IMG/VR virus record: IMGVR_UViG_3300025840_000011
Reading direction: 5' to 3' (one strand)
Length of the DNA: 64,000 bases
Source of the DNA: a virus
Shown here: positions 8,813 to 56,875 of the stretch, piece after piece
How positions within the stretch are numbered: the first letter of the stretch is position 1
Layout: every line of letters starts with the position of its first letter
Notes under the pieces: generated by a model
The model's database searches: none
What the model was told of the DNA's origin: nothing
Seen by the model: only the letters and a program-made list of their open reading frames with translations
Program-made: the position numbers and the translations under genes

Positions 8813-9037
8813 ATGAGTAAATTGACGAAGATAGAAGACGCTGATGGTTTTTTCCGAAATCAGTCTGGGGTTGTGGTTAATATAAATAAAGAAGACGTTG
8901 CATTAACACAACAAAGAAGACAGAAACGAAAAGACCAAGAAGCGGAACATGTTCACATGGTCGAAACTGTAAAATCATTGGAAGAGGAGATGAGTGAAAT
9001 TAAATCCCTTCTTTCGCAACTAGTAGAGAAATTATAG
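8813..9037 (+). CDS. Small coiled-coil hypothetical protein
   Basis: Packed ORF after the VrlC-like gene; C-terminal EMSEIKSLLSQL helix. Confidence 0.7.
   Translation: MSKLTKIEDADGFFRNQSGVVVNINKEDVALTQQRRQKRKDQEAEHVHMVETVKSLEEEMSEIKSLLSQLVEKL
8881..8888 (+). promoter_or_regulatory. Late promoter TATAAATA (intragenic, upstream of 9038)
   Basis: Exact consensus. Confidence 0.5.
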
Positions 9038-11644
9038 ATGGCACGCCCTATTACACTCATAACAGATACGTTTAAGGTACTTAGAGATAACATCAATACT
9101 ATCTCTAATAACGTTGGCGATCCGGATCTTCTAACCACAACGACGAGAGCGTTCACTCTAGGAAACACTGGGGTCGCGCAAAGATCAGACTCTTCTGATG
9201 TTGTTAGTGCGTTAAACGAACTCGACTCTGACCTTCACGGTGCAGGCGGTGGTGATGTAAAGAATGATCTGAACTACATCTCCTACGCAATCAATCGTGT
9301 CCGTGATAGTGGTATGACGGGTGCAATGAACGCTATCGATGCATATATCGGTGGTGACTCAGATACTCTAAATGTTGAAGCGAACACGATCAAAGATGCG
9401 ATCAACGAGATCGAAGCGGTCTTTGACGCAAGTACACTCAAGATTAATGCGGGAGGTGACTTCCGATTTGATGGTGCGGGTGACCTAGAGGTTAACTTAG
9501 ATGGAGGGGATGTTACCTTCCTCAGTGACTCCGATCAGTACGCACATTTTAATCTTAGAGACAGTGCCGCCGATTTTGTACAAACATACACCCACAGTCT
9601 CAGGATTAGAACTGCGGACTCTGCGGCCGGTAACGTATACTTAGATGCGGGGGGAGACATTACTCTCGACGCAGACGGAGGTAACGTATATCTTAAGGAC
9701 GGTGGTGCAACGCATTTTGACTACTCTCTGGGTTCAACCAACACGGTAACAGTAACCGGAAACTTGACACATGATGTTTCTGGTGATATAGTACTGGACG
9801 CCGGTACTCTTAACATAGATTTCTTAGGGGCGGGGACAACACGTTTCGCCTATGGTCTTGGTGCATCTAACACACTAGATGTCACAGGTAATCTTTCCGA
9901 AGTGGTTTCAGGAACCTACACAGAGAGTGCGGGTGGAAACTATCATGTCGGAAACACTGGGACATACGAAGTAGTACCTACCGGAAACGCTACTGTGGAT
10001 GCGGGTGGAGATATCATCCTTGACGCAGATGGTGGTAACGTCACACTCAAAGATGACGATAGTGCGGCATTTGATTTCAGTCTCGTAGACGGTATTGTCT
10101 CTAGAACTGGTCACACTACACTTGATGTTTCTGGTAACATTACTCTTGACGCTGATGGTGGTAACACCTACATCAAAGACGGCGGTACTACTCAGTTCCA
10201 GTTCATTGCGGGAACCAACAAAGAGATTGACGTTCCGGCTGGCAACTTGACAGTTGACGTTGCGGGTGATATAGTACTCGACGCAGACGGCGGAGACATC
10301 GACTTTAAAGATAATGGAACTGCAAGGTTCTCTTATGGTCTAGGTGCAACGAATACACTTGAGGTTAACGGTAATCTGACTCAGACAGTATCGGGTAACG
10401 TAATCGATAGTGCTAATGGGACATATACTGTAACTTCTACAGACGATATGTCACATACTACTCTTGGTAGATACACTCTATCAGCAGATAGTGCTGTTAT
10501 TATAACATCTGATTCTGCAATTGTCAATAGTGCCATTGGTTTTGCTGTAAACACAACTAACGGTTATATTGATCTTAATGCTTCTGGTGCATACGGAACA
10601 GTAAGAGTTGATGCCGATCATGCTATTGTCCTTGATGCTGACGATGGTGACATCTATATTAATGATGGAGGAATCACTGCTTACCACATTATGTCATCTG
10701 GTACAATTTCTCGTGACGGAGACTTGACACTAGACATTTCTGGTGATATAACACTAGATGCAGATGGCGGAGACGTATTCCTCAAAGACGGTGGAACTCA
10801 GTACGGTGCGTTAACCAACACATCCGGTAACCTCATCGTCAAGTCCGGTACGACTACTGCACTGACATTCTCTGGTGCGAACGTTACTACGGGTGGCAAC
10901 ATCACGGTAGGTGGGAACACCATTAGTAGAACAGGTGCATTGACACTAGATGTTTCTAGTGGTATTAGTCTTGACGCTGGTACTGGTATCGTATACCTGA
11001 AAGACAATGGTATCACTTACGGATCGTTAAGAAATCCTGCCGGTGCAAAAACCCTTGACATCTATAGTAATACGACCAAGGCAATCGGGATCGATAGTTC
11101 TTCGAACGTCACGATTACCGGAACGGTCACTGAGGGTACTACACTTGGCACAACATCAACTCACTTGGGTGGTGCGATCAACGAAATCCACACTGAGTTG
11201 GATTCCGCTACTACTGATCTTCAGACAACCAAGGGTAGGGTAACTAATCTCGAATCTCAGATGGATTCTAATGAGGGAATCATTGGTGTCTCAGTAGAAT
11301 GGAATGCGGACAATACCTACAGTTGGATTCACTCAACGTCTAACAGGGCCGCAATCAACGATCTCGACTCTGCGATTGGACATCTTGCAGACTTAGACAA
11401 TACCACTTTCGCTGGTGCAAATGATAAAGACAATGTTGTGACTGCATTGAACGTACTTGCGGGTGACGTGCAAGACGTTCAGGGTGATGCGGGAACACTA
11501 GATAGTAGAATCGGTTCACTTGCAAACCTGGCCGCCTTCTTCGATAGTGCGGGGGCGACATCAAGTATTGTAAACGCCCTAAATCACATGGCAAGTAGAG
11601 TGGTCAATGTGTATGACGAAAATGGCACTCTGTTAAACACTTAA
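9038..11644 (+). CDS. Tail fibre-like protein with D(A/V/I)xGDIxLDADGG repeats
   Basis: About 9 GDIxLDA(D)GG-like repeats; AINE/ALNE coiled segments; Gly/Asp/Thr-rich. Confidence 0.7.
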   Translation: MARPITLITDTFKVLRDNINTISNNVGDPDLLTTTTRAFTLGNTGVAQRSDSSDVVSALNELDSDLHGAGGGDVKNDLNYISYAINRVRDSGMTGAMNAIDAYIGGDSDTLNVEANTIKDAINEIEAVFDASTLKINAGGDFRFDGAGDLEVNLDGGDVTFLSDSDQYAHFNLRDSAADFVQTYTHSLRIRTADSAAGNVYLDAGGDITLDADGGNVYLKDGGATHFDYSLGSTNTVTVTGNLTHDVSGDIVLDAGTLNIDFLGAGTTRFAYGLGASNTLDVTGNLSEVVSGTYTESAGGNYHVGNTGTYEVVPTGNATVDAGGDIILDADGGNVTLKDDDSAAFDFSLVDGIVSRTGHTTLDVSGNITLDADGGNTYIKDGGTTQFQFIAGTNKEIDVPAGNLTVDVAGDIVLDADGGDIDFKDNGTARFSYGLGATNTLEVNGNLTQTVSGNVIDSANGTYTVTSTDDMSHTTLGRYTLSADSAVIITSDSAIVNSAIGFAVNTTNGYIDLNASGAYGTVRVDADHAIVLDADDGDIYINDGGITAYHIMSSGTISRDGDLTLDISGDITLDADGGDVFLKDGGTQYGALTNTSGNLIVKSGTTTALTFSGANVTTGGNITVGGNTISRTGALTLDVSSGISLDAGTGIVYLKDNGITYGSLRNPAGAKTLDIYSNTTKAIGIDSSSNVTITGTVTEGTTLGTTSTHLGGAINEIHTELDSATTDLQTTKGRVTNLESQMDSNEGIIGVSVEWNADNTYSWIHSTSNRAAINDLDSAIGHLADLDNTTFAGANDKDNVVTALNVLAGDVQDVQGDAGTLDSRIGSLANLAAFFDSAGATSSIVNALNHMASRVVNVYDENGTLLNT

Positions 11645-11661
11645 GTTAAGGGACGGTAGTA

Positions 11662-14256
11662 ATGCCAATTGCGAAGAGTAAGCCATTAAAACTCAACAGT
11701 CCCGATCAAGGCGATCTAAAGAGACTTAGTAGTACAGAAGAAAATTACCTATCATATCTGATTGGGCAACACTTCTGTGCGGATAGTGATGGCGACAATG
11801 AGATTGGAAATCTAACACTTACTAGTACTAATGCAAACACCGTAGGTTCGTTTGTTGATACCCTCATAAACGAACCAAGTGGAACGCATCCAACTTCTGC
11901 AATTACGTCAACATCAACTACGACTACTCTGTACCAAAAATACGGTACAGCGGACGAGACTGATTCCGACTTCACAAAACCTATTGCATACTACAACCCT
12001 CTCACAGACGGTAGTACCGATCTTGGTGCGGAAGGTGTTTATGAGATGGCGGATTCTGACATGAATCGTTTAGTCGATAGACTAAATGGTCGAATCGCGT
12101 TGTCCGATTATCTTGGATCTTTTAAACTCAGTAATAGTACGACATCGCCTGGGGCAGGATATGTCAAATTCATAGAAGACGTTTTTACAGATAATATCGA
12201 AGTCGATACGAATACTACAGACAATTTTTCTATCTGGAGAAGAGAGAGTCAGACTGCACCTTCGTCTATTACAGACAGTGATGGTAACACAACACTCCTA
12301 TCCTGCATAAACAGAGACAGTGGTGGTAACTACCTCGGCATTGGTGTGATGTCGGATCGTGCGATAAAAGTTTCTCTTGGACAACGTGCAAAGACTAGAC
12401 GTTCTGCTTCTGATGGGATTGGTTCATATGTTTTGAGATCAAGTTCTCAGGGTGCACCTTCTGGTAGTGGTAGTTGGAGAGCAGTGGGTTCTGCGACAAA
12501 CCGTAGAAGAGACCTAATTCAAACTTCGTATACTCGTACCAGAAACTCCACGTATACCAGAGACAGACAGTCAACCTATGCGGGAATTTATAACAGAACT
12601 AGAGTATCGAATTACACTAGGAATAGAACGTCCACATATTCTAGAAATTTCGTAGGCGACTTTGTTGCGACTTATCAAGGCAACTACATTGCAAACTTTA
12701 TAGGTAACTATTCTCGTGGTTTCGTAGGTAATTACTCACGTAATTTTGCGGGTAACTATATTGGAGACTTTATTGGTAACTATCAAAGAGGGTTTGTCGG
12801 TAACTATACCGGAGACTTTACTGGTAACTACGCCCGTAACTTTCTTACGGGGTATTCCCGAAACTTCACTCGTGATAGGACATCAAATCAGACCGCTGTA
12901 AGAACGCAGACTCGTACCTCTTCATATTCTAGAACTTTCTCTAGGGTAAGAAGTTCAGCGTATACCAGAACGAGGACTTCTTATTACTCAAGAAATAGTG
13001 TTGCAAATAGAAACTCTCAGTACAACAGAACCTCTACACGTACTAGGTATGAATACTACTCTCGTTCTTTTGCGGGTAACTACGCACGTGCGTATACCAG
13101 AGATCGTCAACAAACTAGACACTCGACTTATAATAGAACCTTTATAGGTAACTATTCCCGTAACTATACACGGTTCTTTACTGGAGACTACACAAGAAAC
13201 TCTTTTTATAACAGAACGGCATATTACAATCGGTTTCGTCCGAATCCAAACTGGGATCCTTGGAATGCAGCTCAAGGCCCCATATATTACTTAGGAGTCT
13301 ACTCCCGAAATATCGCAACGGAAGGGCCTCTGTCATATAGTAGATCGTTTACCGGAAACTATTCAGGTAATGCACCGAACTACAGTAGAACTATTGTTTC
13401 GATTGGTCCACCTTGGCAGTGGAACTGGATTGCGGGCGAGTTCCCATCAGTCTATACTAGAACTTCACAATATACAGCGGCTTTCCAAAGAGTTCGTGTA
13501 GAAACTTATAACGCGAATTTTACCAGAAACCGAACCTCGAATTACGCAAGAGCGTTTACGAGAGATCGGATCTCATCGTATGCAAGACTTTTTGTCGCCA
13601 ACTATATTGGAAACTATCAGCGAGTATTTACAAGAAGTCGGTCCTCAAATTTCTCACGTAATTTTGGGGGGAACTTTATAGGTGACTATGCGAGAACTTT
13701 CATAGGTGACTTCACTGGTAATTACTCACGTGATTTTGGGGGTAATTACTCACGTAACTTTACACGAAACAGGAATTCTGCATACAGTAGAAATTTCATT
13801 GGTAACTACACTGGGGACTTCTTAGCGAATTATATTGGTAATTACGCACGTAACTACTTTAGAGTAACACGGACATCTACATATACTAGAAACTCAACTA
13901 GAGATTCTCAGAGAACTATAGGTAGTGATTACACTCGAAATTCTACAAGAGACTCGACTAGAGTAAGATCAAGTACTTACACTAGAACTCGAAGTTCTAC
14001 GTATACTAGAGACAGTACCGTTGGTCCTTATACAAGAAACAGGAACTCAAATTTCACGGCAACTAGAACGTCCTCATATTCTAGAGATTTCATAGGCGAT
14101 TATACTAGAGGATTTTTAGGAGATTATATTGGCGATTATGCAAGAGGGTTTATTGGAAATTACTCTCGAACCTTCACTGGTAACTACACAGGTGAGACTG
14201 TCGGCAGTTCAACGGAACTTATCGAAACGTATACCTTGTATGTTAAATATGCATAA
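11662..14256 (+). CDS. Mirror-repeat (predicted giant beta-hairpin) fibre protein A
   Basis: Globular N-domain paralogous to 14278; YxRx/RxSx/FxGx tetrapeptide repeats at 12529-14196. Confidence 0.75.
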   Translation: MPIAKSKPLKLNSPDQGDLKRLSSTEENYLSYLIGQHFCADSDGDNEIGNLTLTSTNANTVGSFVDTLINEPSGTHPTSAITSTSTTTTLYQKYGTADETDSDFTKPIAYYNPLTDGSTDLGAEGVYEMADSDMNRLVDRLNGRIALSDYLGSFKLSNSTTSPGAGYVKFIEDVFTDNIEVDTNTTDNFSIWRRESQTAPSSITDSDGNTTLLSCINRDSGGNYLGIGVMSDRAIKVSLGQRAKTRRSASDGIGSYVLRSSSQGAPSGSGSWRAVGSATNRRRDLIQTSYTRTRNSTYTRDRQSTYAGIYNRTRVSNYTRNRTSTYSRNFVGDFVATYQGNYIANFIGNYSRGFVGNYSRNFAGNYIGDFIGNYQRGFVGNYTGDFTGNYARNFLTGYSRNFTRDRTSNQTAVRTQTRTSSYSRTFSRVRSSAYTRTRTSYYSRNSVANRNSQYNRTSTRTRYEYYSRSFAGNYARAYTRDRQQTRHSTYNRTFIGNYSRNYTRFFTGDYTRNSFYNRTAYYNRFRPNPNWDPWNAAQGPIYYLGVYSRNIATEGPLSYSRSFTGNYSGNAPNYSRTIVSIGPPWQWNWIAGEFPSVYTRTSQYTAAFQRVRVETYNANFTRNRTSNYARAFTRDRISSYARLFVANYIGNYQRVFTRSRSSNFSRNFGGNFIGDYARTFIGDFTGNYSRDFGGNYSRNFTRNRNSAYSRNFIGNYTGDFLANYIGNYARNYFRVTRTSTYTRNSTRDSQRTIGSDYTRNSTRDSTRVRSSTYTRTRSSTYTRDSTVGPYTRNRNSNFTATRTSSYSRDFIGDYTRGFLGDYIGDYARGFIGNYSRTFTGNYTGETVGSSTELIETYTLYVKYA
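12529..14196 (+). repeat. Tetrapeptide repeat array with 56 mirrored units per arm
   Basis: Manual parse: arm 1 is 12529-13200, arm 2 is 13519-14196. Confidence 0.85.
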
Positions 14257-14277
14257 ATACTCACAACAGGAGTAAAT

Positions 14278-17200
14278 ATGTCATCTAACATACCATTGAA
14301 ATTAGAGGGAACCGCAGGCGATCTGCAAGAGATGACCTCTGGTGAGGAGAACTACATCTCTTATATCGTCGGTAAGGATAACCTTGCCGCGACTACTGGT
14401 GTGTCGGATTTAACTCTAACATCTACTGGTAACACCTCTATTGGATCGTTCGTTAACACCTTCTACAACGAAGCGGTGGGAACTCACCCAGCGTCTTCAA
14501 TTACTTCGGGGTCAACGACTACAACAGTATATCAGGTTGCGGGAACAGAATCTCCGGACACTGGTAGTCTTCGTCCCATAGGTTACGCAACAGATGGCGG
14601 TTCCACTCCTAGTTTTTATGAGATGCCTGATTCTGATCTGAACGTTCTTGCGCGTCGAGTAAACTCACGTATTGCAACTTCGGACTATCCGGGCATCTAC
14701 AAGTTAGCGACTGCCGCACCTAGTGGTGACTATGCAGTAAAAGTTTCTAACGTATTTACGGATACACAGACAGACGGTACTACAACACAATATAACATCT
14801 ATCAAAGAACCGCAATGACCGCACCCACCACAGTCAGACCCGTTGGTCTTAGTGGTGGCGATCTTAAAGAGATGGCGGACAGTGACATCTCAGACTTGAT
14901 AGGATCTTTTGTGCGTACACTTCGTGCAACGTCTGGAGAAATAGGATCATACCAACTGAGATCCTCATCACAAGGTGCACCAACAGATGCGGGTACTTGG
15001 ACTTCGGTAGGAACTGCAACAGATACGAAGAAAAATATTGTTGAAACAAACTACACCCGAAACAGGAATTCTGCATACAGTAGGACTCGAAGTTCGAACT
15101 ATACACGGACACGGGGTTCTACGTATACTCGCACGTCTCTTAGAAGCCGTGTCTCGAATTACGCTGGTGATTATGTTGGTAATTATACCAGAAACTTTAT
15201 TGGTGATTACACCCGCGATTATCTGGGTAATTATATTGGCGACTTTATCGGGAACTACTCTCGCACCAGAGTATCAACATACTCTCGAACCAGAATAACA
15301 GACTACGCCGGTAACTTTATTGGTAACTACTCCAGAACTAGAGTATCCAATTATACAAGGGATAGTCAAAGGACTTCGGTTCGCACCAGAGTCTCTGCGT
15401 ACTCCAGAACCAGACCTTCTACTTACCAAAGGGATAGAGTGACCAACTTTGTCGGTGACTTTATTGGTAACTACACTCGCAATAGAATATCCAACTACAC
15501 AAGAACTCGTGTGTCATCTTACGCTGGGGACTATGTTGGTAACTACGCACGTAACTTCCTTGGTAACTATAACAGAAATTTCTTGGGTAACTATCAGAGA
15601 AGTTTTGCCGGTGATTACGTAGGTAACTATACTAGAAACTCAACTAGAGATTCTCAGAGAACCAGAACTTCTACCTACACTCGAACGAGTACACGTACAA
15701 GACTTTCAACATATACTCGAACGAGTACACGTACAAGAAGTTCAGCGTACACACGAAACAGTACCAGAAACCGTGTATCTAACTATCTGGGTAACTACAA
15801 CAGAAACTTCGCTGGTAATTACGTAGGTAACTATAACAGAAGTTTTGTGGGTAACTACGTAGGTAACTTCCTTGGTAACTACGTGGGTGATTTTGTTGGA
15901 GACTATACTCGACAAGGTGCATACGCTCGCGCATATGCGGGTGACTATCTGGGTAATGTCAACTACGTAGGTAACTACGCAGGAACCGTAAACTATCAAC
16001 GTACTCGTGCAACCAATTATCAGAGGACTAGTACTGCGCCTCTTGATTATACTCGTGCACGTCCCGCAACTTTAGATTATACACGTACTCGTGCAACCAA
16101 CTACGCAAGAACTGTAGCATACACTCGTGCACGTCCTGCAACTTTAGATTATACAAGGACCAGTACACGTACAAGTACTGCAACTGGTAACTATACTAGG
16201 AACCGTGTAGCTACACTGGACTACACCAGAGATCGTCAGCAAAACTATGCACGTACTTTGTATTACACTAGAACCAGTACTGGATCGGCCTCATATACCA
16301 GAAACAGAGTTGGTTCACAAGGATACAGTAGAACACTTAACTACACACGTGATGTCTACTATTACAGATCGACTCCGGCTCCGTATGGTTCGGTGTATGG
16401 TAGAACCCAAAACTTCTCTCGTACACTTACGTACTACAGAAACGCAACGTTCACCGGAAACTACAGTCGTAACCTCAGTTATACGGGTGACTATTTCCGT
16501 CTCGTATACTACTTGGCGAACTTCGTAGGTAACTACACTCGTAACGCTACATATACCGGAGATTATACTCGTACATTCAGTTACGCTGGTAACTTTACAG
16601 GTAACTACACTCGTAGCGTAACCTATACTGGTAACTACGCTCGTACCATAAACTATACGGGTGACTTCGTTGGTAACTACACTCGTAACGTAACCTATAC
16701 TGGTAACTATTTAAGAACCGGATCATATTTGGGTGACTACGTTGGCAACTTCGTGGGTGACTATGTTAATGAAAATGCGGTTGCCTATGCGGGAGACTAC
16801 ATCAACGAAAACGTAAATTACGTTGGTAACTATGCACGAAACTTCTATCGAACACTCAACTATCAACGTACCCGTGTAACCGACTATCAACGTACCCGTG
16901 CAACTGATTACACACGTACTCGCGTGTCTGCTTACAGTAGAACAAGTACCCGAACCAGAGTATCCGCTTATTCTCAAAACTACGCAAGGACTTTCGTAGG
17001 GGACTTCACTGGTAACTATGCGAGAAACTTCGCCGGTGACTATGTGGGTAACTACTCAAGAGGTTTCGCTGGTGACTATGTGGGTAACTATGCACGTAAC
17101 TTCCTTGGTAACTATACTGGGGACTTTATTGGCAACTACACAAGAACTTCTTTGAGGACTCGTTATTCACAATATACAAGAACTCGCGTATCGTCCTATA

Positions 17201-17784
17201 CTAGAAACAGATCGTCAACCTACGCAAGAACCTCTACACGTACTAGTAACAGAGATTTCATTGGTGACTACACTCGTGGGTTCCTTGGTAATTACACACG
17301 GAACAGCGTCAATACCTTTGCGGGTAACTTTATAGGTGACTACGCCAGAAACTTTATTGGTAACTATACACGCAACTTCGAAGGTAACTACCTTGGTAAC
17401 TATGTCGGAGACTATACACGTGACTTCGTGGGTAACTACTCAAGAGACAGAGTAACTATATTCACGGGTGACTTTATCGGTAACTATGCGAGAAACTTCA
17501 TTGGAGAGTATTCAAGAAACTCAACCAGAGATTCGCAGAGAACCAGAACCTCAGCGTTTACTAGAACCCGAAATTCTGCGTACACTCGTACATCAACAAG
17601 AACAAGTACACAAACCTTCGCTGGAGATTACGTGGGTAACTACGCACGTGACTTCATTGGAGACTACAGTCGTGGGTTCATTGGAAACTATCAAAGAACT
17701 TTCGTTGGTAACTACACAGGTACAACCATCGATTCCGGTTCGTCCACAATCCAAACATACACGTTATATGTGAGATCCGCTTGA
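14278..17784 (+). CDS. Mirror-repeat (predicted giant beta-hairpin) fibre protein B
   Basis: Paralog of 11662 (PLKL...EENY(L/I)SY, GTHP, EM.DSD, Y.LRSSSQGAP, C-terminal TYTLYV). Confidence 0.75.
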   Translation: MSSNIPLKLEGTAGDLQEMTSGEENYISYIVGKDNLAATTGVSDLTLTSTGNTSIGSFVNTFYNEAVGTHPASSITSGSTTTTVYQVAGTESPDTGSLRPIGYATDGGSTPSFYEMPDSDLNVLARRVNSRIATSDYPGIYKLATAAPSGDYAVKVSNVFTDTQTDGTTTQYNIYQRTAMTAPTTVRPVGLSGGDLKEMADSDISDLIGSFVRTLRATSGEIGSYQLRSSSQGAPTDAGTWTSVGTATDTKKNIVETNYTRNRNSAYSRTRSSNYTRTRGSTYTRTSLRSRVSNYAGDYVGNYTRNFIGDYTRDYLGNYIGDFIGNYSRTRVSTYSRTRITDYAGNFIGNYSRTRVSNYTRDSQRTSVRTRVSAYSRTRPSTYQRDRVTNFVGDFIGNYTRNRISNYTRTRVSSYAGDYVGNYARNFLGNYNRNFLGNYQRSFAGDYVGNYTRNSTRDSQRTRTSTYTRTSTRTRLSTYTRTSTRTRSSAYTRNSTRNRVSNYLGNYNRNFAGNYVGNYNRSFVGNYVGNFLGNYVGDFVGDYTRQGAYARAYAGDYLGNVNYVGNYAGTVNYQRTRATNYQRTSTAPLDYTRARPATLDYTRTRATNYARTVAYTRARPATLDYTRTSTRTSTATGNYTRNRVATLDYTRDRQQNYARTLYYTRTSTGSASYTRNRVGSQGYSRTLNYTRDVYYYRSTPAPYGSVYGRTQNFSRTLTYYRNATFTGNYSRNLSYTGDYFRLVYYLANFVGNYTRNATYTGDYTRTFSYAGNFTGNYTRSVTYTGNYARTINYTGDFVGNYTRNVTYTGNYLRTGSYLGDYVGNFVGDYVNENAVAYAGDYINENVNYVGNYARNFYRTLNYQRTRVTDYQRTRATDYTRTRVSAYSRTSTRTRVSAYSQNYARTFVGDFTGNYARNFAGDYVGNYSRGFAGDYVGNYARNFLGNYTGDFIGNYTRTSLRTRYSQYTRTRVSSYTRNRSSTYARTSTRTSNRDFIGDYTRGFLGNYTRNSVNTFAGNFIGDYARNFIGNYTRNFEGNYLGNYVGDYTRDFVGNYSRDRVTIFTGDFIGNYARNFIGEYSRNSTRDSQRTRTSAFTRTRNSAYTRTSTRTSTQTFAGDYVGNYARDFIGDYSRGFIGNYQRTFVGNYTGTTIDSGSSTIQTYTLYVRSA
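15052..17724 (+). repeat. Tetrapeptide repeat array mirrored about TPAPYGSV (16372-16395)
   Basis: Arm 1 is 440 aa and arm 2 is 443 aa; the 2-residue stutters are mirrored. Confidence 0.9.
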
Positions 17785-17809
17785 CACGAATGATCTAGTG
17801 TTGTATAAT
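17781..17809 (+). promoter_or_regulatory. sigma70-type promoter TTGACA-N17-TATAAT
   Basis: Perfect consensus overlapping the stop codon of the 14278 gene. Confidence 0.8.
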
Positions 17810-17853
17810 AACACACTATATACTATTAATTTCGCCAATTAGGAGATTATGAA

Positions 17854-18321
17854 ATGAGTTATAGGAAATGGCTTGACAACGCCTTCTGGGAAACCAGTGA
17901 AAAAGAAATGTTAAACTGCATCCTTGAGATGGAGGATGATGTTGGTCGAGTAACTCGACAAGTAATGAAGTTAAAAAAGACTGACTCCGAAGGAAACGAG
18001 AATCCGGACTTCGTTGAGGTTGTTGAATTCTTGGGTCAAGAACTCATTGACGAGAACACCGAAGAACGCAACGTTCGCAAGAAGAGAGAATCTGAAGAAG
18101 AGAAACAACGACAACTTGAACACGCTAAGGCGAGAAAGTTGGAAGAACTCTTCAACTACAAGTTGGAAGCCTTTGAGGTTCCGGAGATCAAAGACTCTAA
18201 AAACCGTCCTCTAAAATCTAAACTTCGTCGGGCAAAGAATAAGGTCGAAGTGAACCTATATGCAATTATGATCCTGATGGATGAACTCAAGAAGGCGGAA
18301 GAGAGTGACGGAGAAGAGTAG
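17854..18321 (+). CDS. Hypothetical protein (possible fibre assembly chaperone)
   Basis: AGGAG RBS; charged helical protein directly after the fibre genes; function is inferred only. Confidence 0.6.
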   Translation: MSYRKWLDNAFWETSEKEMLNCILEMEDDVGRVTRQVMKLKKTDSEGNENPDFVEVVEFLGQELIDENTEERNVRKKRESEEEKQRQLEHAKARKLEELFNYKLEAFEVPEIKDSKNRPLKSKLRRAKNKVEVNLYAIMILMDELKKAEESDGEE

Positions 18322-19039
18322 AGGTTTTGTAATTGTCGCATCTAAGAAAATTAATTTCTATAGGTACGCAATCAATCTGGCAGAGTCTATCCTTGACTAT
18401 TACGAGGATGCGAAGATCACACTCTTTTGTGAAGAGTGGATGTTCGAAGAGATCCATCGTGAAATCTTTGATCAAGTAATCTGGTGTTCCGATCACTATC
18501 GTGCAAAGTTATGGGGTATGGCGAAAACCCCATATGATCAAACGATGTACCTTGATGCGGATATGGAAGTCGAACATGAAGACATCCTAACCTGTTGGGA
18601 CGAATTCGATAAGGGTGATGTAGTATTCTCCAAACTCACCGAAGAAAGAAGTTACACCTATGCAGAGTGGGAGTTCGACACACCGGAAGGAAAGACAGCG
18701 TTTACTTTGTGTGGTGGTATATGTCTCTATGATATGACCGTCCCTCTGGTAAAAGAATTCATGGATGACTGGTGGGATTTGACAAGGCGTCAAATGGATC
18801 ATGAATGGTGGCCAAAAGGATACGCTGAGTCTCTTCGTTCTTGGGATCAGTTCTCACTCTGGTGGTTGACCACCAAAGAAGAGAAGTACAAGGACTTGAA
18901 GATCGGTGTCTTTGAAGACGATGTTCGTTGGAATTATTATAACGCATGGAACTGGGCAAGGACAAAACCCGAATCGGGTAAACCAGTAATCATTAGACAT
19001 TACTCATGCGGTCTTGATAAGGATGGATATATTTTATGA
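18305..19039 (+). CDS. GT-A fold glycosyltransferase (GT8-like)
   Basis: KLWGMAKTPYDQTMYLDAD (DxD), GG and DQFSLW motifs, C-terminal IIRHY; likely GTG start at 18305 (ORF track gives 18281). Confidence 0.7.
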   Translation: MTEKSRGFVIVASKKINFYRYAINLAESILDYYEDAKITLFCEEWMFEEIHREIFDQVIWCSDHYRAKLWGMAKTPYDQTMYLDADMEVEHEDILTCWDEFDKGDVVFSKLTEERSYTYAEWEFDTPEGKTAFTLCGGICLYDMTVPLVKEFMDDWWDLTRRQMDHEWWPKGYAESLRSWDQFSLWWLTTKEEKYKDLKIGVFEDDVRWNYYNAWNWARTKPESGKPVIIRHYSCGLDKDGYIL

Positions 19040-19743
19040 TGACAGACATACCTCTCCGGAACTCTGAGTTCCTAGAGATGTTGGAAAACTGTAGAAAACT
19101 GTTAACCGATGACGTAGAGGGTTTTCAAAAAAATCTTAGATATCACTGTGAGTCCGAACTTGATGACACCGAAGGTCAACGAGAGAAGTGGACCAGCGAA
19201 GATTATCTCAAGTATGTGGTTGAGGTTGAAGGTGATAAACATGAAGGGTTTCCTGATCACCTAGTTGGGTATGGTTTCAAACCACACCAACCAGATCAAA
19301 ATGTCAAGTTGTTCAAACCTGGCCACGATCCAGTGTGGACTAATGAGTTCATCACTAAACTCTACGCGCACAATACAGATCTGGTAAATTTTCTTGGTGC
19401 AAAGAACAATGCGTTGTTCTGTTACTATCCGCCAGGCGGGTACATCTCATGGCATAACAATTGGAATGCGTCTGCATACAATTTGATATGTTCTTGGTCT
19501 GAGACTGGAGATGGGTGGTTCAAGTATCTTGATCCCAAAACAAGAGAGATAGTAACCATTCCGGACGAATCTGGTTGGCAGATCAAGGCCGGATACTTTG
19601 GTGGTCAACACGAAAAGGATAGGGTGTGTTATCATGCAGCGTCTACGGACTGTTGGAGGTTAACGGTATCCTTTATCTGGAACCACATGGAGAACTCACA
19701 AAACCTTCAGGACGATCTGTTATACGAAATTAGTTCTGAATAA
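19036..19743 (+). CDS. 2OG-Fe(II) oxygenase-like (DSBH) protein
   Basis: YYPPGGYISWHNN...YHAA...RLTVSF; H-x-N replaces H-x-D. Confidence 0.6.
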   Translation: MMTDIPLRNSEFLEMLENCRKLLTDDVEGFQKNLRYHCESELDDTEGQREKWTSEDYLKYVVEVEGDKHEGFPDHLVGYGFKPHQPDQNVKLFKPGHDPVWTNEFITKLYAHNTDLVNFLGAKNNALFCYYPPGGYISWHNNWNASAYNLICSWSETGDGWFKYLDPKTREIVTIPDESGWQIKAGYFGGQHEKDRVCYHAASTDCWRLTVSFIWNHMENSQNLQDDLLYEISSE

Positions 19744-19747
19744 TCCG

Positions 19748-19810
19748 ATTTCCAGTTTCCCGTTTATATAAATAAAAACATAGTATTCATCTAGGTTGGA
19801 AACTGGGAAT
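19748..19810 (+). promoter_or_regulatory. Late promoter (19767-19774) flanked by a 13-bp inverted repeat that sequesters the RBS/start of 19809
   Basis: atttccagtttcc / ggaaactgggaat with one G-U pair. Confidence 0.7.
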
Positions 19811-44501: not shown

Positions 44502-45023
44502 ATGGCGAAATCTACCTTAACCGCAAACAAAAACTTTTTACAACCCACAGGGTTTAGAGTAAGCATCGACAACACGTTGTTCGGTAACGTGCAGTTCTTT
44601 GCACAATCCATATCACATCCGGGCGCTTCCACGAACGCAGTCGAGGTTGGTATACCTAGAGTTACTGGAATCCCATTTTCAGGATCTAAGATAACATATT
44701 CTGACCTTACTGTCAACCTTATTCTTGACGAAGACATGCAGTCCTACACAGAACTACAGAAGTGGATGGAGCGTCTGGTCAACGAGAAAGAGGTTAGGCC
44801 AGGCGATAGGTACAGAGGACAGGTCGAGAAGGATGAAACATATTCCGACATCACGGTTACCATCTTGACCAGTCAGAACAACTCAAACTTGCGAATCAGA
44901 TACAACGATGCGATCATCACTAATCTGGGCAGTTTTGAGTTGAACGCAAACGCAAACGATATTACTTACATTCAATTCCCCGCAACCTTCCGGTTCAGGG
45001 ACTTCGAGATCGTCAAACTATAA
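44502..45023 (+). CDS. gp3: Tail tube terminator / completion protein
   Basis: NFLQPTGF, LDEDM..Y.E...W; lies before uvsY. Confidence 0.8.
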   Translation: MAKSTLTANKNFLQPTGFRVSIDNTLFGNVQFFAQSISHPGASTNAVEVGIPRVTGIPFSGSKITYSDLTVNLILDEDMQSYTELQKWMERLVNEKEVRPGDRYRGQVEKDETYSDITVTILTSQNNSNLRIRYNDAIITNLGSFELNANANDITYIQFPATFRFRDFEIVKL

Positions 45024-45024
45024 C

Positions 45025-45053
45025 TTGACACAACACGACAAAACGGGTATAAT
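45025..45053 (+). promoter_or_regulatory. sigma70-type promoter TTGACA-N17-TATAAT
   Basis: Perfect consensus. Confidence 0.8.
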
Positions 45054-45056
45054 AAT

Positions 45057-45248
45057 ATGGAAATAAACCCAATAGAACCAGCGTCTATGCCAATGAAGTC
45101 ATGGTGGAACGAGGTACAGACACAAAAGGTTCAAAAGAAATTGGTAGAGGGTGGTACTGCAATGCAATACACCATCTATACATATAACCGATATGGACAA
45201 CTGATAGAGTCTGAGGTGAGGGTTCAACAACTTGATATGAGGGCATAG
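45057..45248 (+). CDS. Hypothetical protein
   Basis: Packed ORF abutting uvsY; start codon uncertain. Confidence 0.55.
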   Translation: MEINPIEPASMPMKSWWNEVQTQKVQKKLVEGGTAMQYTIYTYNRYGQLIESEVRVQQLDMRA

Positions 45249-45695
45249 ATGCTAGACCTTGATAATATTTTGAAAGAGTGGGCAGAAGACTGTAAGATCC
45301 CCCAACACCAACTAGATGAAACATCCCGTAACACACCTAGTCTACACGCAAAGTACTTGCAGTACCTATCTTTGACTAAATTGAACCTGAAGAGGGCAGA
45401 ACACTCTCAGAAGGATCTACTCAAAGACAAGTGGTTGTACTACAACGGTAAGATGGATGAGGAAACTCTTCAGTCTAAGAACTGGCATCCGGACCCCTTT
45501 GACGGATTGAAGATTATGAAAGGTGACATGAACTATTACTATGACTCCGATCCTGAGATTCAGAAGTCCGAAGAAAAAATCGTTTACCTTAAAACGATTA
45601 TAGATACTCTGGTCGAGATAGTCGATAGTCTGAAGTGGAGACACCAGACCGTGAAGAACATTATTGAGTGGAGAAAGTTCGATGCCGGAGGTTAA
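45249..45695 (+). CDS. uvsY: Recombination mediator UvsY
   Basis: W..D..I, P.LHAKYL, YYNGK, IKN.IEWRKF..G-like C-terminus. Confidence 0.85.
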   Translation: MLDLDNILKEWAEDCKIPQHQLDETSRNTPSLHAKYLQYLSLTKLNLKRAEHSQKDLLKDKWLYYNGKMDEETLQSKNWHPDPFDGLKIMKGDMNYYYDSDPEIQKSEEKIVYLKTIIDTLVEIVDSLKWRHQTVKNIIEWRKFDAGG

Positions 45696-56836: not shown

Positions 56837-56875
56837 CCCAAGACTATATACACACACAAACTAAGGAGGTTTGAT

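Follow-up and report, generated by a model that had tools for sequence, protein, structure and literature searches.

A candidate modification cassette linked to mirror-repeat fibre genes in T4-like myoviruses

The DNA analysed here (64,000 nucleotides of IMG/VR record IMGVR_UViG_3300025840_000011, hereafter the window; the record has 82 kb and is about 46% complete) covers the structural and early region of a T4-like myovirus, and it raises the question of what three small genes do directly behind two genes for mirror-repeat fibres. The fibre genes are hpA (11662-14256; 864 aa) and its paralog hpB (14278-17784; 1168 aa). The genes that follow encode a charged orphan protein, p155 (17854-18321; 155 aa), a protein resembling GT-A-fold glycosyltransferases (GTs), p252 (18281-19039; 252 aa), and a protein resembling 2-oxoglutarate (2OG) oxygenases with a double-stranded beta-helix, p235 (19036-19743; 235 aa); all five genes are on the + strand. 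A preliminary description of this DNA, made from its letters and a list of open reading frames (ORFs), had placed a trio of genes with overlapping ends directly 3’ of two hairpin genes and had proposed that the enzymes fold or modify the fibres. All five ORFs were verified, and their coordinates bear out the layout. On the evidence set out below, the best reading, to which we give about even odds, is that the trio serves specifically to mature or modify the mirror-repeat fibres of this T4-like lineage.

The gap between hpB and p155 is 69 nt. The p155 and p252 genes overlap by 17-41 nt, the likely p252 start being GTG 18305, since its relatives start at the equivalent position and not at 18281; between p252 and p235 the overlap is 4 nt (ATGA). 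By this arrangement, p155, p252 and p235 are translationally coupled.

Linkage of the fibre genes and the cassette

Whether the trio keeps company with mirror-repeat genes, and whether it ever occurs without them, was the synteny question raised by the preliminary description. Linkage was scored in IMG/VR contigs, with contexts taken from related-loci searches and only loci with enough flank being counted. The loci fall into three deep clades with about 30-35% identity between clades. Anchoring on the GT gave 70 IMG/VR loci, composed of the close clade 1 (60-81% identity) and the distant clade 2 (35%). In clade 1, p155 was found upstream of the GT in 48/48 loci, the oxygenase-like gene downstream in 47/47, and a fibre gene upstream in 42/42; the corresponding figures in clade 2 were 18/18, 19/19 and 17/17. 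The upstream fibre genes of these loci all end in the conserved C-terminal strand described below. Anchoring on the fibre N-terminal domain gave 78 loci, and the cassette follows in every one of the 55 whose fibre ORF ends inside the contig; in the remaining 23 the fibre ORF runs off the contig end. A single-sequence query with this domain returned no loci. Clade 3 was found by way of an alignment of one sub-family of the oxygenase-like protein (WHHNGNA type). Here a GT homolog is located directly upstream of the oxygenase-like gene in 16 of 18 loci and, flank permitting, is itself preceded by a p155 homolog and by a fibre with the same N-terminal domain; when clade 3 was anchored on the fibre, the cassette was present in 8/8.

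Across the three clades the gene order is strict: wherever the full trio was found, a fibre gene lay directly upstream of it, and every complete fibre gene found was accompanied by the trio. The linkage is strict and bidirectional in three deep clades, and it persists despite differences in the number, length and repeats of the fibres and despite varying inserted neighbours. Phage C48C1 (Kyanoviridae) is the sole related record among 50,697 phage genomes and the only one of these records that carries the fibre, the GT or the oxygenase-like gene, and it has them in the same order; protein searches of the phage records, including those with clade-3 queries, returned C48C1 alone. A megablast search of the region against phage records gave nothing informative, a literature search on Phage C48C1 found no paper, and no published account of the fibre-plus-trio module was found.

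The fibres and the cassette proteins

Both fibres contain much T, S, R, N, Y and G and very little K, C, M and H. They share a layout of a conserved N-terminal domain (~260-270 aa), an extended array of 8-residue units that fall into two classes (Y-x-R-x-R-x-S-x and F-x-G-N/D-Y-x-R-x), and a conserved C-terminal strand with the motif ETYTLYV.A (hpA ends ETYTLYV+A). For the mirror architecture from which the preliminary description had named the hairpin genes, residues were classed by unit type and every possible centre was scored for residues of the opposite class. In hpB, a single sharp optimum was obtained at residue 702, with the opposite class at 92.5% of 187 mirrored positions (other centres 0.46 +/- 0.13, maximum 0.72); in hpA, the single optimum is at residue 563, with 95% (other centres 0.42 +/- 0.19). 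As each fibre has one sharp mirror optimum, the hairpin is a real property of the sequence. The mirror centre of hpB near residue 702 carries a Pro-containing tip, STPAPYG, and the scarce prolines and tryptophans of the fibres concentrate at the mirror centres, the presumed distal tips.

Homologs of hpA are located upstream of the cassette in all related loci, with one or two fibre genes per locus; hpB is 40% identical to a 3347-aa repeat protein of Phage C48C1. Fibre length starts at ~370 aa (L074), reaches ~750 aa in clade 2 and extends to the 3347 aa of C48C1. The 23 open fibre ORFs mentioned above (L173, L180, L210, L214, L215 and 18 others) end inside the repeat region and reach up to 2752 aa; metagenome assemblies break at the fibre repeats, and the true length range is therefore under-sampled. 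The N-terminal domain looks internally duplicated (14278-15060 and 11662-12500 in the window), with the half motifs LQEM..E...IGSF.DT...GTHP and LKEM.D.EI...IG.Y.L.S.AP..GTW; it matched no known family, and its ESM Atlas hits were unnamed viral clusters only. The fibres of clade 3 have the same N-terminal domain and repeats of other chemistry (Y-x-G-P and NYLGPG). Common to the fibres of all three clades are regularly spaced Tyr/Phe beside Asn/Asp and Gly, and not Arg or Pro; for this reason Tyr or Asn/Asp would be a more likely conserved acceptor, if there is any, than Arg.

Searches of Pfam, PHROGs and NCBIfam with p155, p252, p235 and both fibres gave no informative match. The preliminary description had taken the cassette products for a charged and supposedly helical protein, a DxD GT-A glycosyltransferase and an oxygenase-like beta-helix protein with an atypical H-x-N; the charge of p155 was confirmed, and AlphaFold2 models, fold searches and alignments agree with the two fold assignments.

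The AlphaFold2 model of p252 is of moderate confidence (predicted local distance difference test score, pLDDT, 74). Its top Foldseek matches were glycogenin, GlyE, UGGT and LgtC, with E 4e-7 to glycogenin-1; VIA placed glycogenin first (Z 11.7, root-mean-square deviation 4.1, 179 residues aligned), followed by GlyE, LARGE1, UGGT and LgtC, with further GT-A proteins and nucleotidyltransferases at a short distance. By its model, p252 has a GT-A fold, with GT8 enzymes closest. The motif D92-x-D94 is invariant in 18 sequences from the three clades (27-77% identity). H240, the candidate third GT8 metal ligand, is kept in clades 1 and 2 and gives way in clade 3, mostly to Gln; around this residue the model falls below pLDDT 50. 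No match to Pfam (including PF01501) or NCBIfam was found for p252 at E <= 0.01, and a profile search of its family against PDB sequences returned nothing. The p252-type GT is single-copy in four near-complete genomes.

The model of p235 is confident (pLDDT 89.8) and has the double-stranded beta-helix fold. Foldseek matched it to PolD, P. putida prolyl 4-hydroxylase (P4H) and PHD2 (E 5e-6 to 1e-4), and VIA to PHD2 (Z 11.6), to the prolyl hydroxylases (PHDs) of Trichoplax and Dictyostelium (~10.5) and to the P. putida EF-Tu P4H (10.6). A full HMMER search of 1.84 billion representatives yielded a family of 852 clusters at E <= 1e-3 (50% identity clusters), with 133 at E <= 1e-30. In 104 family representatives (24-42% identity) the residues Y131, W139, H140, N142, W181, H200 and R208 are invariant; the strand positions are H140-x-N142, H200 and R208-x-T210, with Y131 upstream. 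HxN was seen in 129 of 150 representatives scanned; a near-invariant D177 was also noted in the modelled enzymes. Instead of the HxD/E...H facial triad, p235 has H140-x-N142...H200. R208 lies at +8 from H200 and Y131 at -9 from H140 (distances along the sequence), which we take to match the spacing of the 2OG-binding residues R383 and Y303 of PHD2. Selection acts on the altered metal site, which is therefore no decayed one. The Pfam 2OG-oxygenase families gave no match for p235, and only one of the 104 family members matches PF03171, weakly (E 0.0026); a profile search of the family against PDB sequences and a literature search for H-x-N oxygenases found nothing. Judging by the model, the p235 family forms a large and mostly viral branch of the 2OG-oxygenase fold that carries no annotation.

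Several members of this family are located outside the cassette. Each near-complete genome (those behind L001, L010, L026 and L028) has three copies of the p235-type gene: besides the cassette copy, one is found between ThyX and a DnaB-type helicase gene and another between a tail-tube-like gene and UvsY; L159:10001-10669 and L249:5208-5858 are such paralogs. The window holds no gene at the site of the UvsY-side paralog (45023-45249). Stand-alone p235-like copies also occur in clade-3 phages (L087, L088). Bacterial homologs with a WHTNAN motif are present as single genes in contigs of Halieaceae metagenome-assembled genomes of up to 514 kb, and the family is therefore not purely viral. One of the Halieaceae homologs (L260:7578-8273; 231 aa, YPPNGYMGWHTNAN...WH...R.S; see also L257 and L258) adjoins a LysR-type regulator. 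In a maximum-likelihood tree, cassette-linked copies make up the backbone. The paralogs next to ThyX group together on a single long stem (100/99) as neighbours of the clade-1 cassette copies, and clades 2 and 3, both cassette-linked, fall outside this grouping. This placement, in a tree with midpoint root only, suggests that the cassette linkage is ancestral in these phages and the stand-alone p235 copies derived.

The charged p155 (44% K/R/E/D) is a candidate adaptor or chaperone. It is homologous across all three clades through the C-terminal motif LF..K..F..IK...K.IRRA and is the best-conserved cassette member within clade 1. No relatives outside these phages were found in Pfam, PHROG, NCBIfam, PDB or named Atlas entries, the ESM Atlas matches being unnamed viral clusters only. 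One homolog (L073:8577-9272) has 231 aa, compared with ~155, owing to added C-terminal tandem repeats of the SANTVVENV type. No membrane-like or hydrophobic segment was found in p155, p252 or p235, and a membrane-bound Gtr-type host-serotype system was rejected on this ground.

Promoters and neighbouring genes

The genes of the window include those for the baseplate wedge, a gp5-like hub, the neck, the sheath and the terminase, as well as capsid-type genes. In the gap between hpB and p155, a sigma70-type promoter with a 12/12 match to TTGACA-17-TATAAT was found (17781-17809, + strand), which is the perfect promoter that the preliminary description had seen within an otherwise late-promoter structural cluster; pattern searches of the window agree with both parts of that statement. 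The T4-type, late-promoter-like sequence TATAAATA stands in front of structural genes at 567, 8881, 19767, 23959 and 32700. The site at 8881-8888 (+) is upstream of the hub gene (9038-11644, +; phrog_430, baseplate hub/tail lysozyme). As it is the only such site ahead of hpA and hpB, hub, hpA and hpB probably form one late unit. The site at 19767-19774 (+) marks the downstream edge of the cassette, before p119 (at 19809), a structural gene matching phrog_1084/phrog_3304, and more genes of the fibre module follow. Other near-perfect sigma70 sites on the + strand are located in the early small-gene region (45-61 kb). As sigma70 sites mark the small-gene region and TATAAATA marks structural genes, the cassette looks like an early-type unit within a late cluster.

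A second 12/12 TTGACA-17-TATAAT site, with a TG extension, lies antisense within the hub gene (10527-10499, - strand), so that perfection of the match is in itself no proof of function; the hub gene also holds two 11/12 sense matches (9764-9792 and 10247-10275, +). For 12/12 sites this is far above chance expectation, and the antisense copy may serve as a promoter, internal or antisense. A match of at least 10/12 occurs at the same place before p155 in ~13 of 45 distinct relatives, clade 2 included. Many other relatives have, instead of it, a terminator hairpin after the fibre gene and a recurring CTATATAC, which in the window is found at 17816-17823 (+), ~35 nt upstream of the p155 start (~30-40 nt across the loci). 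This motif, which persists before p155 in relatives without sigma70-like hexamers and occurs in the window also at 56844-56851, may be a promoter or a regulatory element. Separate transcription of the cassette from the fibres is well supported by these sequence features; we infer that it would also be expressed earlier.

In clades 2 and 3, further genes adjoin the cassette. In one clade-2 locus (L063:11350-15712, - strand) it is followed by a six-gene block on the opposite strand, encoding four paralogous DxD GT-A-like proteins of ~240 aa, one of which weakly matches PF01501 (GT8, E 0.0012), a possible methyltransferase-like protein and a charged coiled protein. The clade-3 island (L078:10704-12360; L081:7299-8719 and 10669-13104; L084:13612-15558) includes genes for a GT25 (PF01755, E 4e-14), a methyltransferase, a radical SAM/SPASM protein (E 2e-16; its conservation of 72-75% between loci far exceeds that of its neighbours), a GT2, a canonical PF13640 2OG oxygenase, and KdsB and KdsA, which act in 3-deoxy-D-manno-octulosonate (Kdo) synthesis. 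Such sugar-activation, glycan-building and maturase-type genes would fit a role in glycan or protein modification; they do not name the acceptor. In some clade-3 phages, collagen-like proteins (with GNPGNPGNN repeats and 36% Gly, for example) are encoded a few kb from the cassette (L086:2867-4732, also L090 and L268-L270; L078:246-1445; L264:1802 onwards; L026:19212 onwards) and could offer a prolyl-hydroxylase-like enzyme an additional substrate. The idea that the conserved substrate is a collagen-like protein was rejected, as G-X-Y ORFs are sporadic in the relatives (10 of 272 loci) and absent from the window.

Interpretation and known counterparts

How, then, could the trio serve the fibres? 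The nearest structural neighbours of its two enzyme-like members are protein-directed enzymes (glycogenin, GlyE, UGGT, PHD2 and EF-Tu P4H). In the proposed mechanism, the cassette would be transcribed from its own host-type promoter, and its proteins would be present when the late fibre genes are translated. The soluble, GT8-like p252 with its intact DxD would transfer a sugar from a nucleotide sugar to side chains of the Tyr/Thr/Ser/Asn/Arg-rich repeats; p235 would oxidise fibre residues through its non-canonical metal site, or else bind the fibre or a cofactor; and p155 would act as adaptor or chaperone. The idea of the preliminary description that these enzymes fold or modify the fibres is partly supported, by the folds, the separate promoter and the strict linkage; the oxygenase-like family, not being specific to fibres, speaks against it. 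Its analogy with the hydroxylation and subsequent glycosylation of collagen proved loose, as there are no runs of at least eight G-X-Y triplets in the window and the folds are those of PHD and P4H enzymes, not of lysyl hydroxylase.

Several observations count against fibre modification. First, the evidence for it consists of gene linkage and predicted folds, and all of the loci belong to related myoviruses, so the linkage is partly inherited synteny. Second, the fold matches leave room for other activities: nucleotidyltransferases (cytidylyltransferases) nearly equal glycogenin as neighbours of p252 (Z 11.2 vs 11.7), and AlkB and FTO score only ~1-1.5 Z below PHD2 for p235 (Z 9.6-10). Third, the candidate third GT8 ligand H240 is lost in clade 3, and the triad carboxylate is replaced by Asn in all aligned members of the p235 family, which makes ordinary Fe(II)/2OG hydroxylation by p235 doubtful. 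Fourth, the p235 family is not fibre-specific, given its stand-alone paralogs and the Halieaceae homologs with no fibre nearby. Finally, GT-A and GT8 folds also serve lipopolysaccharide (LPS) synthesis, and a cyanophage analysis interprets GT and Kds genes of a similar sort as agents of host-surface or DNA modification, leaving virion proteins out of consideration as targets (PMC12801897).

This last point leads to the explanation that the enzymes act away from the fibre, on host envelope glycan or LPS, a nucleotide sugar or a small molecule, the fibre boundary being a conserved site for accessory genes. The variable sugar-gene islands of clades 2 and 3 lie at exactly this site and include the LPS-typical KdsA and KdsB; the GT8, GT25 and GT2 families contain many LPS enzymes, the literature on a large cyanomyovirus reads such genes as cell-wall modification (PMC12801897), and members of the oxygenase-like family occur in bacteria and as paralogs independent of the fibre. 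We nevertheless consider this explanation unlikely, because the core trio, in contrast to the variable island genes, always stays with the fibre gene in all three clades, is translationally coupled and encodes proteins without membrane segments. Moreover, p155 lacks enzyme-like features and yet is the best-conserved member of the cassette in clade 1.

A second explanation dispenses with chemistry: p155 would be a chaperone, and the two pseudo-enzymes would hold the beta-hairpin arms or the N-terminal domain during folding. Hairpin arms of several hundred residues must come into register, the tail fibres of T4 require dedicated chaperones (gp57A, gp38), and both the Asn in place of the acidic metal ligand in all family members and the loss of the third GT8 ligand in clade 3 speak for this explanation. 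Such an assembly aid is nonetheless improbable in view of the DxD, invariant across about 27-35% identity, and of Y131, R208 and the two His, none of which varies in 104 divergent sequences, as is typical of ligand binding or catalysis; the stand-alone paralogs and bacterial homologs also make a purely fibre-folding role unlikely for p235. Modification of nucleic acid, by AlkB/FTO/TET-like oxidation and subsequent base glycosylation, is very improbable: AlkB and FTO are among the fold matches of p235, one of its paralogs lies between ThyX and the DnaB-type helicase gene, and a phage precedent exists, but the distance from the distal His to the Arg in p235 is 8, near what we take to be 9 in PHD2 and not the presumed 17 of AlkB, and the cassette copy accompanies the fibre gene and is part of the structural module. 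The precedent is the hypermodification of phage DNA by an oxygenase together with a GT, according to the account in PMC12619734 (citing Pyle et al., 2024).

Returning to fibre modification, a fuller picture can be offered tentatively, as possible rather than probable. Uncultured T4-like phages, abundant as a group, would run their own cytoplasmic system for decorating proteins, in which a new oxygenase family with an obligatory H-x-N...His metal site (its chemistry possibly other than ordinary hydroxylation), a glycogenin-like transferase and an adaptor make a glycan-coated receptor-binding organelle out of a self-pairing beta-hairpin fibre of hundreds of residues, diversified in single lineages by GT25, radical SAM/SPASM and Kdo-synthesis add-ons. 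Post-translational decoration of phage virions is known from few cases, such as the capsid and tail-tube glycans of mycobacteriophages, and in giant viruses virion decoration governs host recognition and immune visibility. If the fibre is modified, the host range of widespread environmental myoviruses would hinge on a phage-encoded glycan, which would be invisible in the fibre sequence; this would bear on the prediction of receptors from genomes. Three unannotated protein families are defined here, of which the large oxygenase-like one, with its 852 clusters, has no Pfam model, and its invariant H-x-N site raises an enzymological question. Phage C48C1, an isolate-type record, carries the system, and the cassette genes are small and their products predicted to be soluble.

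In kind, the module would be one of virus-encoded structural-protein modification; none of the three cassette families carries an annotation. In having a small non-structural helper near fibre genes it resembles T4 with gp57A and gp38, which are needed ahead of or during the folding of the fibre, a possible role for p155 as well; we know of no enzyme-fold proteins accompanying the T4 tail-fibre chaperones. Mycobacteriophages offer a case in which phage GTs are believed to attach sugars to a virion protein that is synthesised in the cytoplasm of the bacterium (Freeman et al., 2023, cited by PMC12619734 and PMC12801897). Those citing accounts place the sugars on the C-termini of capsid and tail-tube subunits and describe no partner of the oxygenase or p155 kind; in the present case a fibre is the partner, the phages are marine-type T4-like myoviruses, and the modification is deduced from genes. 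The collagen systems, with LH3 and the GT25 enzyme COLGALT, and the mimivirus proteins L230 and R699 (PMC5802723, PMC9546862) provide another parallel: as in mimivirus, a virus would supply an oxygenase and a glycosyltransferase for a repetitive structural fibre, and in clade 3 a GT25 joins in. In contrast to those systems, the window lacks G-X-Y runs of eight triplets or longer, the folds are prolyl-hydroxylase-like, the genes are separate and not fused, and the triad is non-canonical.

The closest working analogy is the Skp1 pathway of protists, in which the prolyl 4-hydroxylase PhyA makes the site and the glycan is finished by the glycogenin-like GT8 enzyme Gat1 (10.1101/764241). It differs from the present module in that there is no homology at the sequence level, that p235 has H-x-N and not H-x-D, that the presumed substrate is a giant repeat fibre, and that the module is known from its genes alone. 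The two are alike in pairing a soluble PHD-type beta-helix enzyme with a glycogenin-like GT8, which in the Skp1 pathway act in the cytoplasm on a folded protein, and in structure p235 and p252 match few proteins better than the Dictyostelium PHD and glycogenin, respectively.

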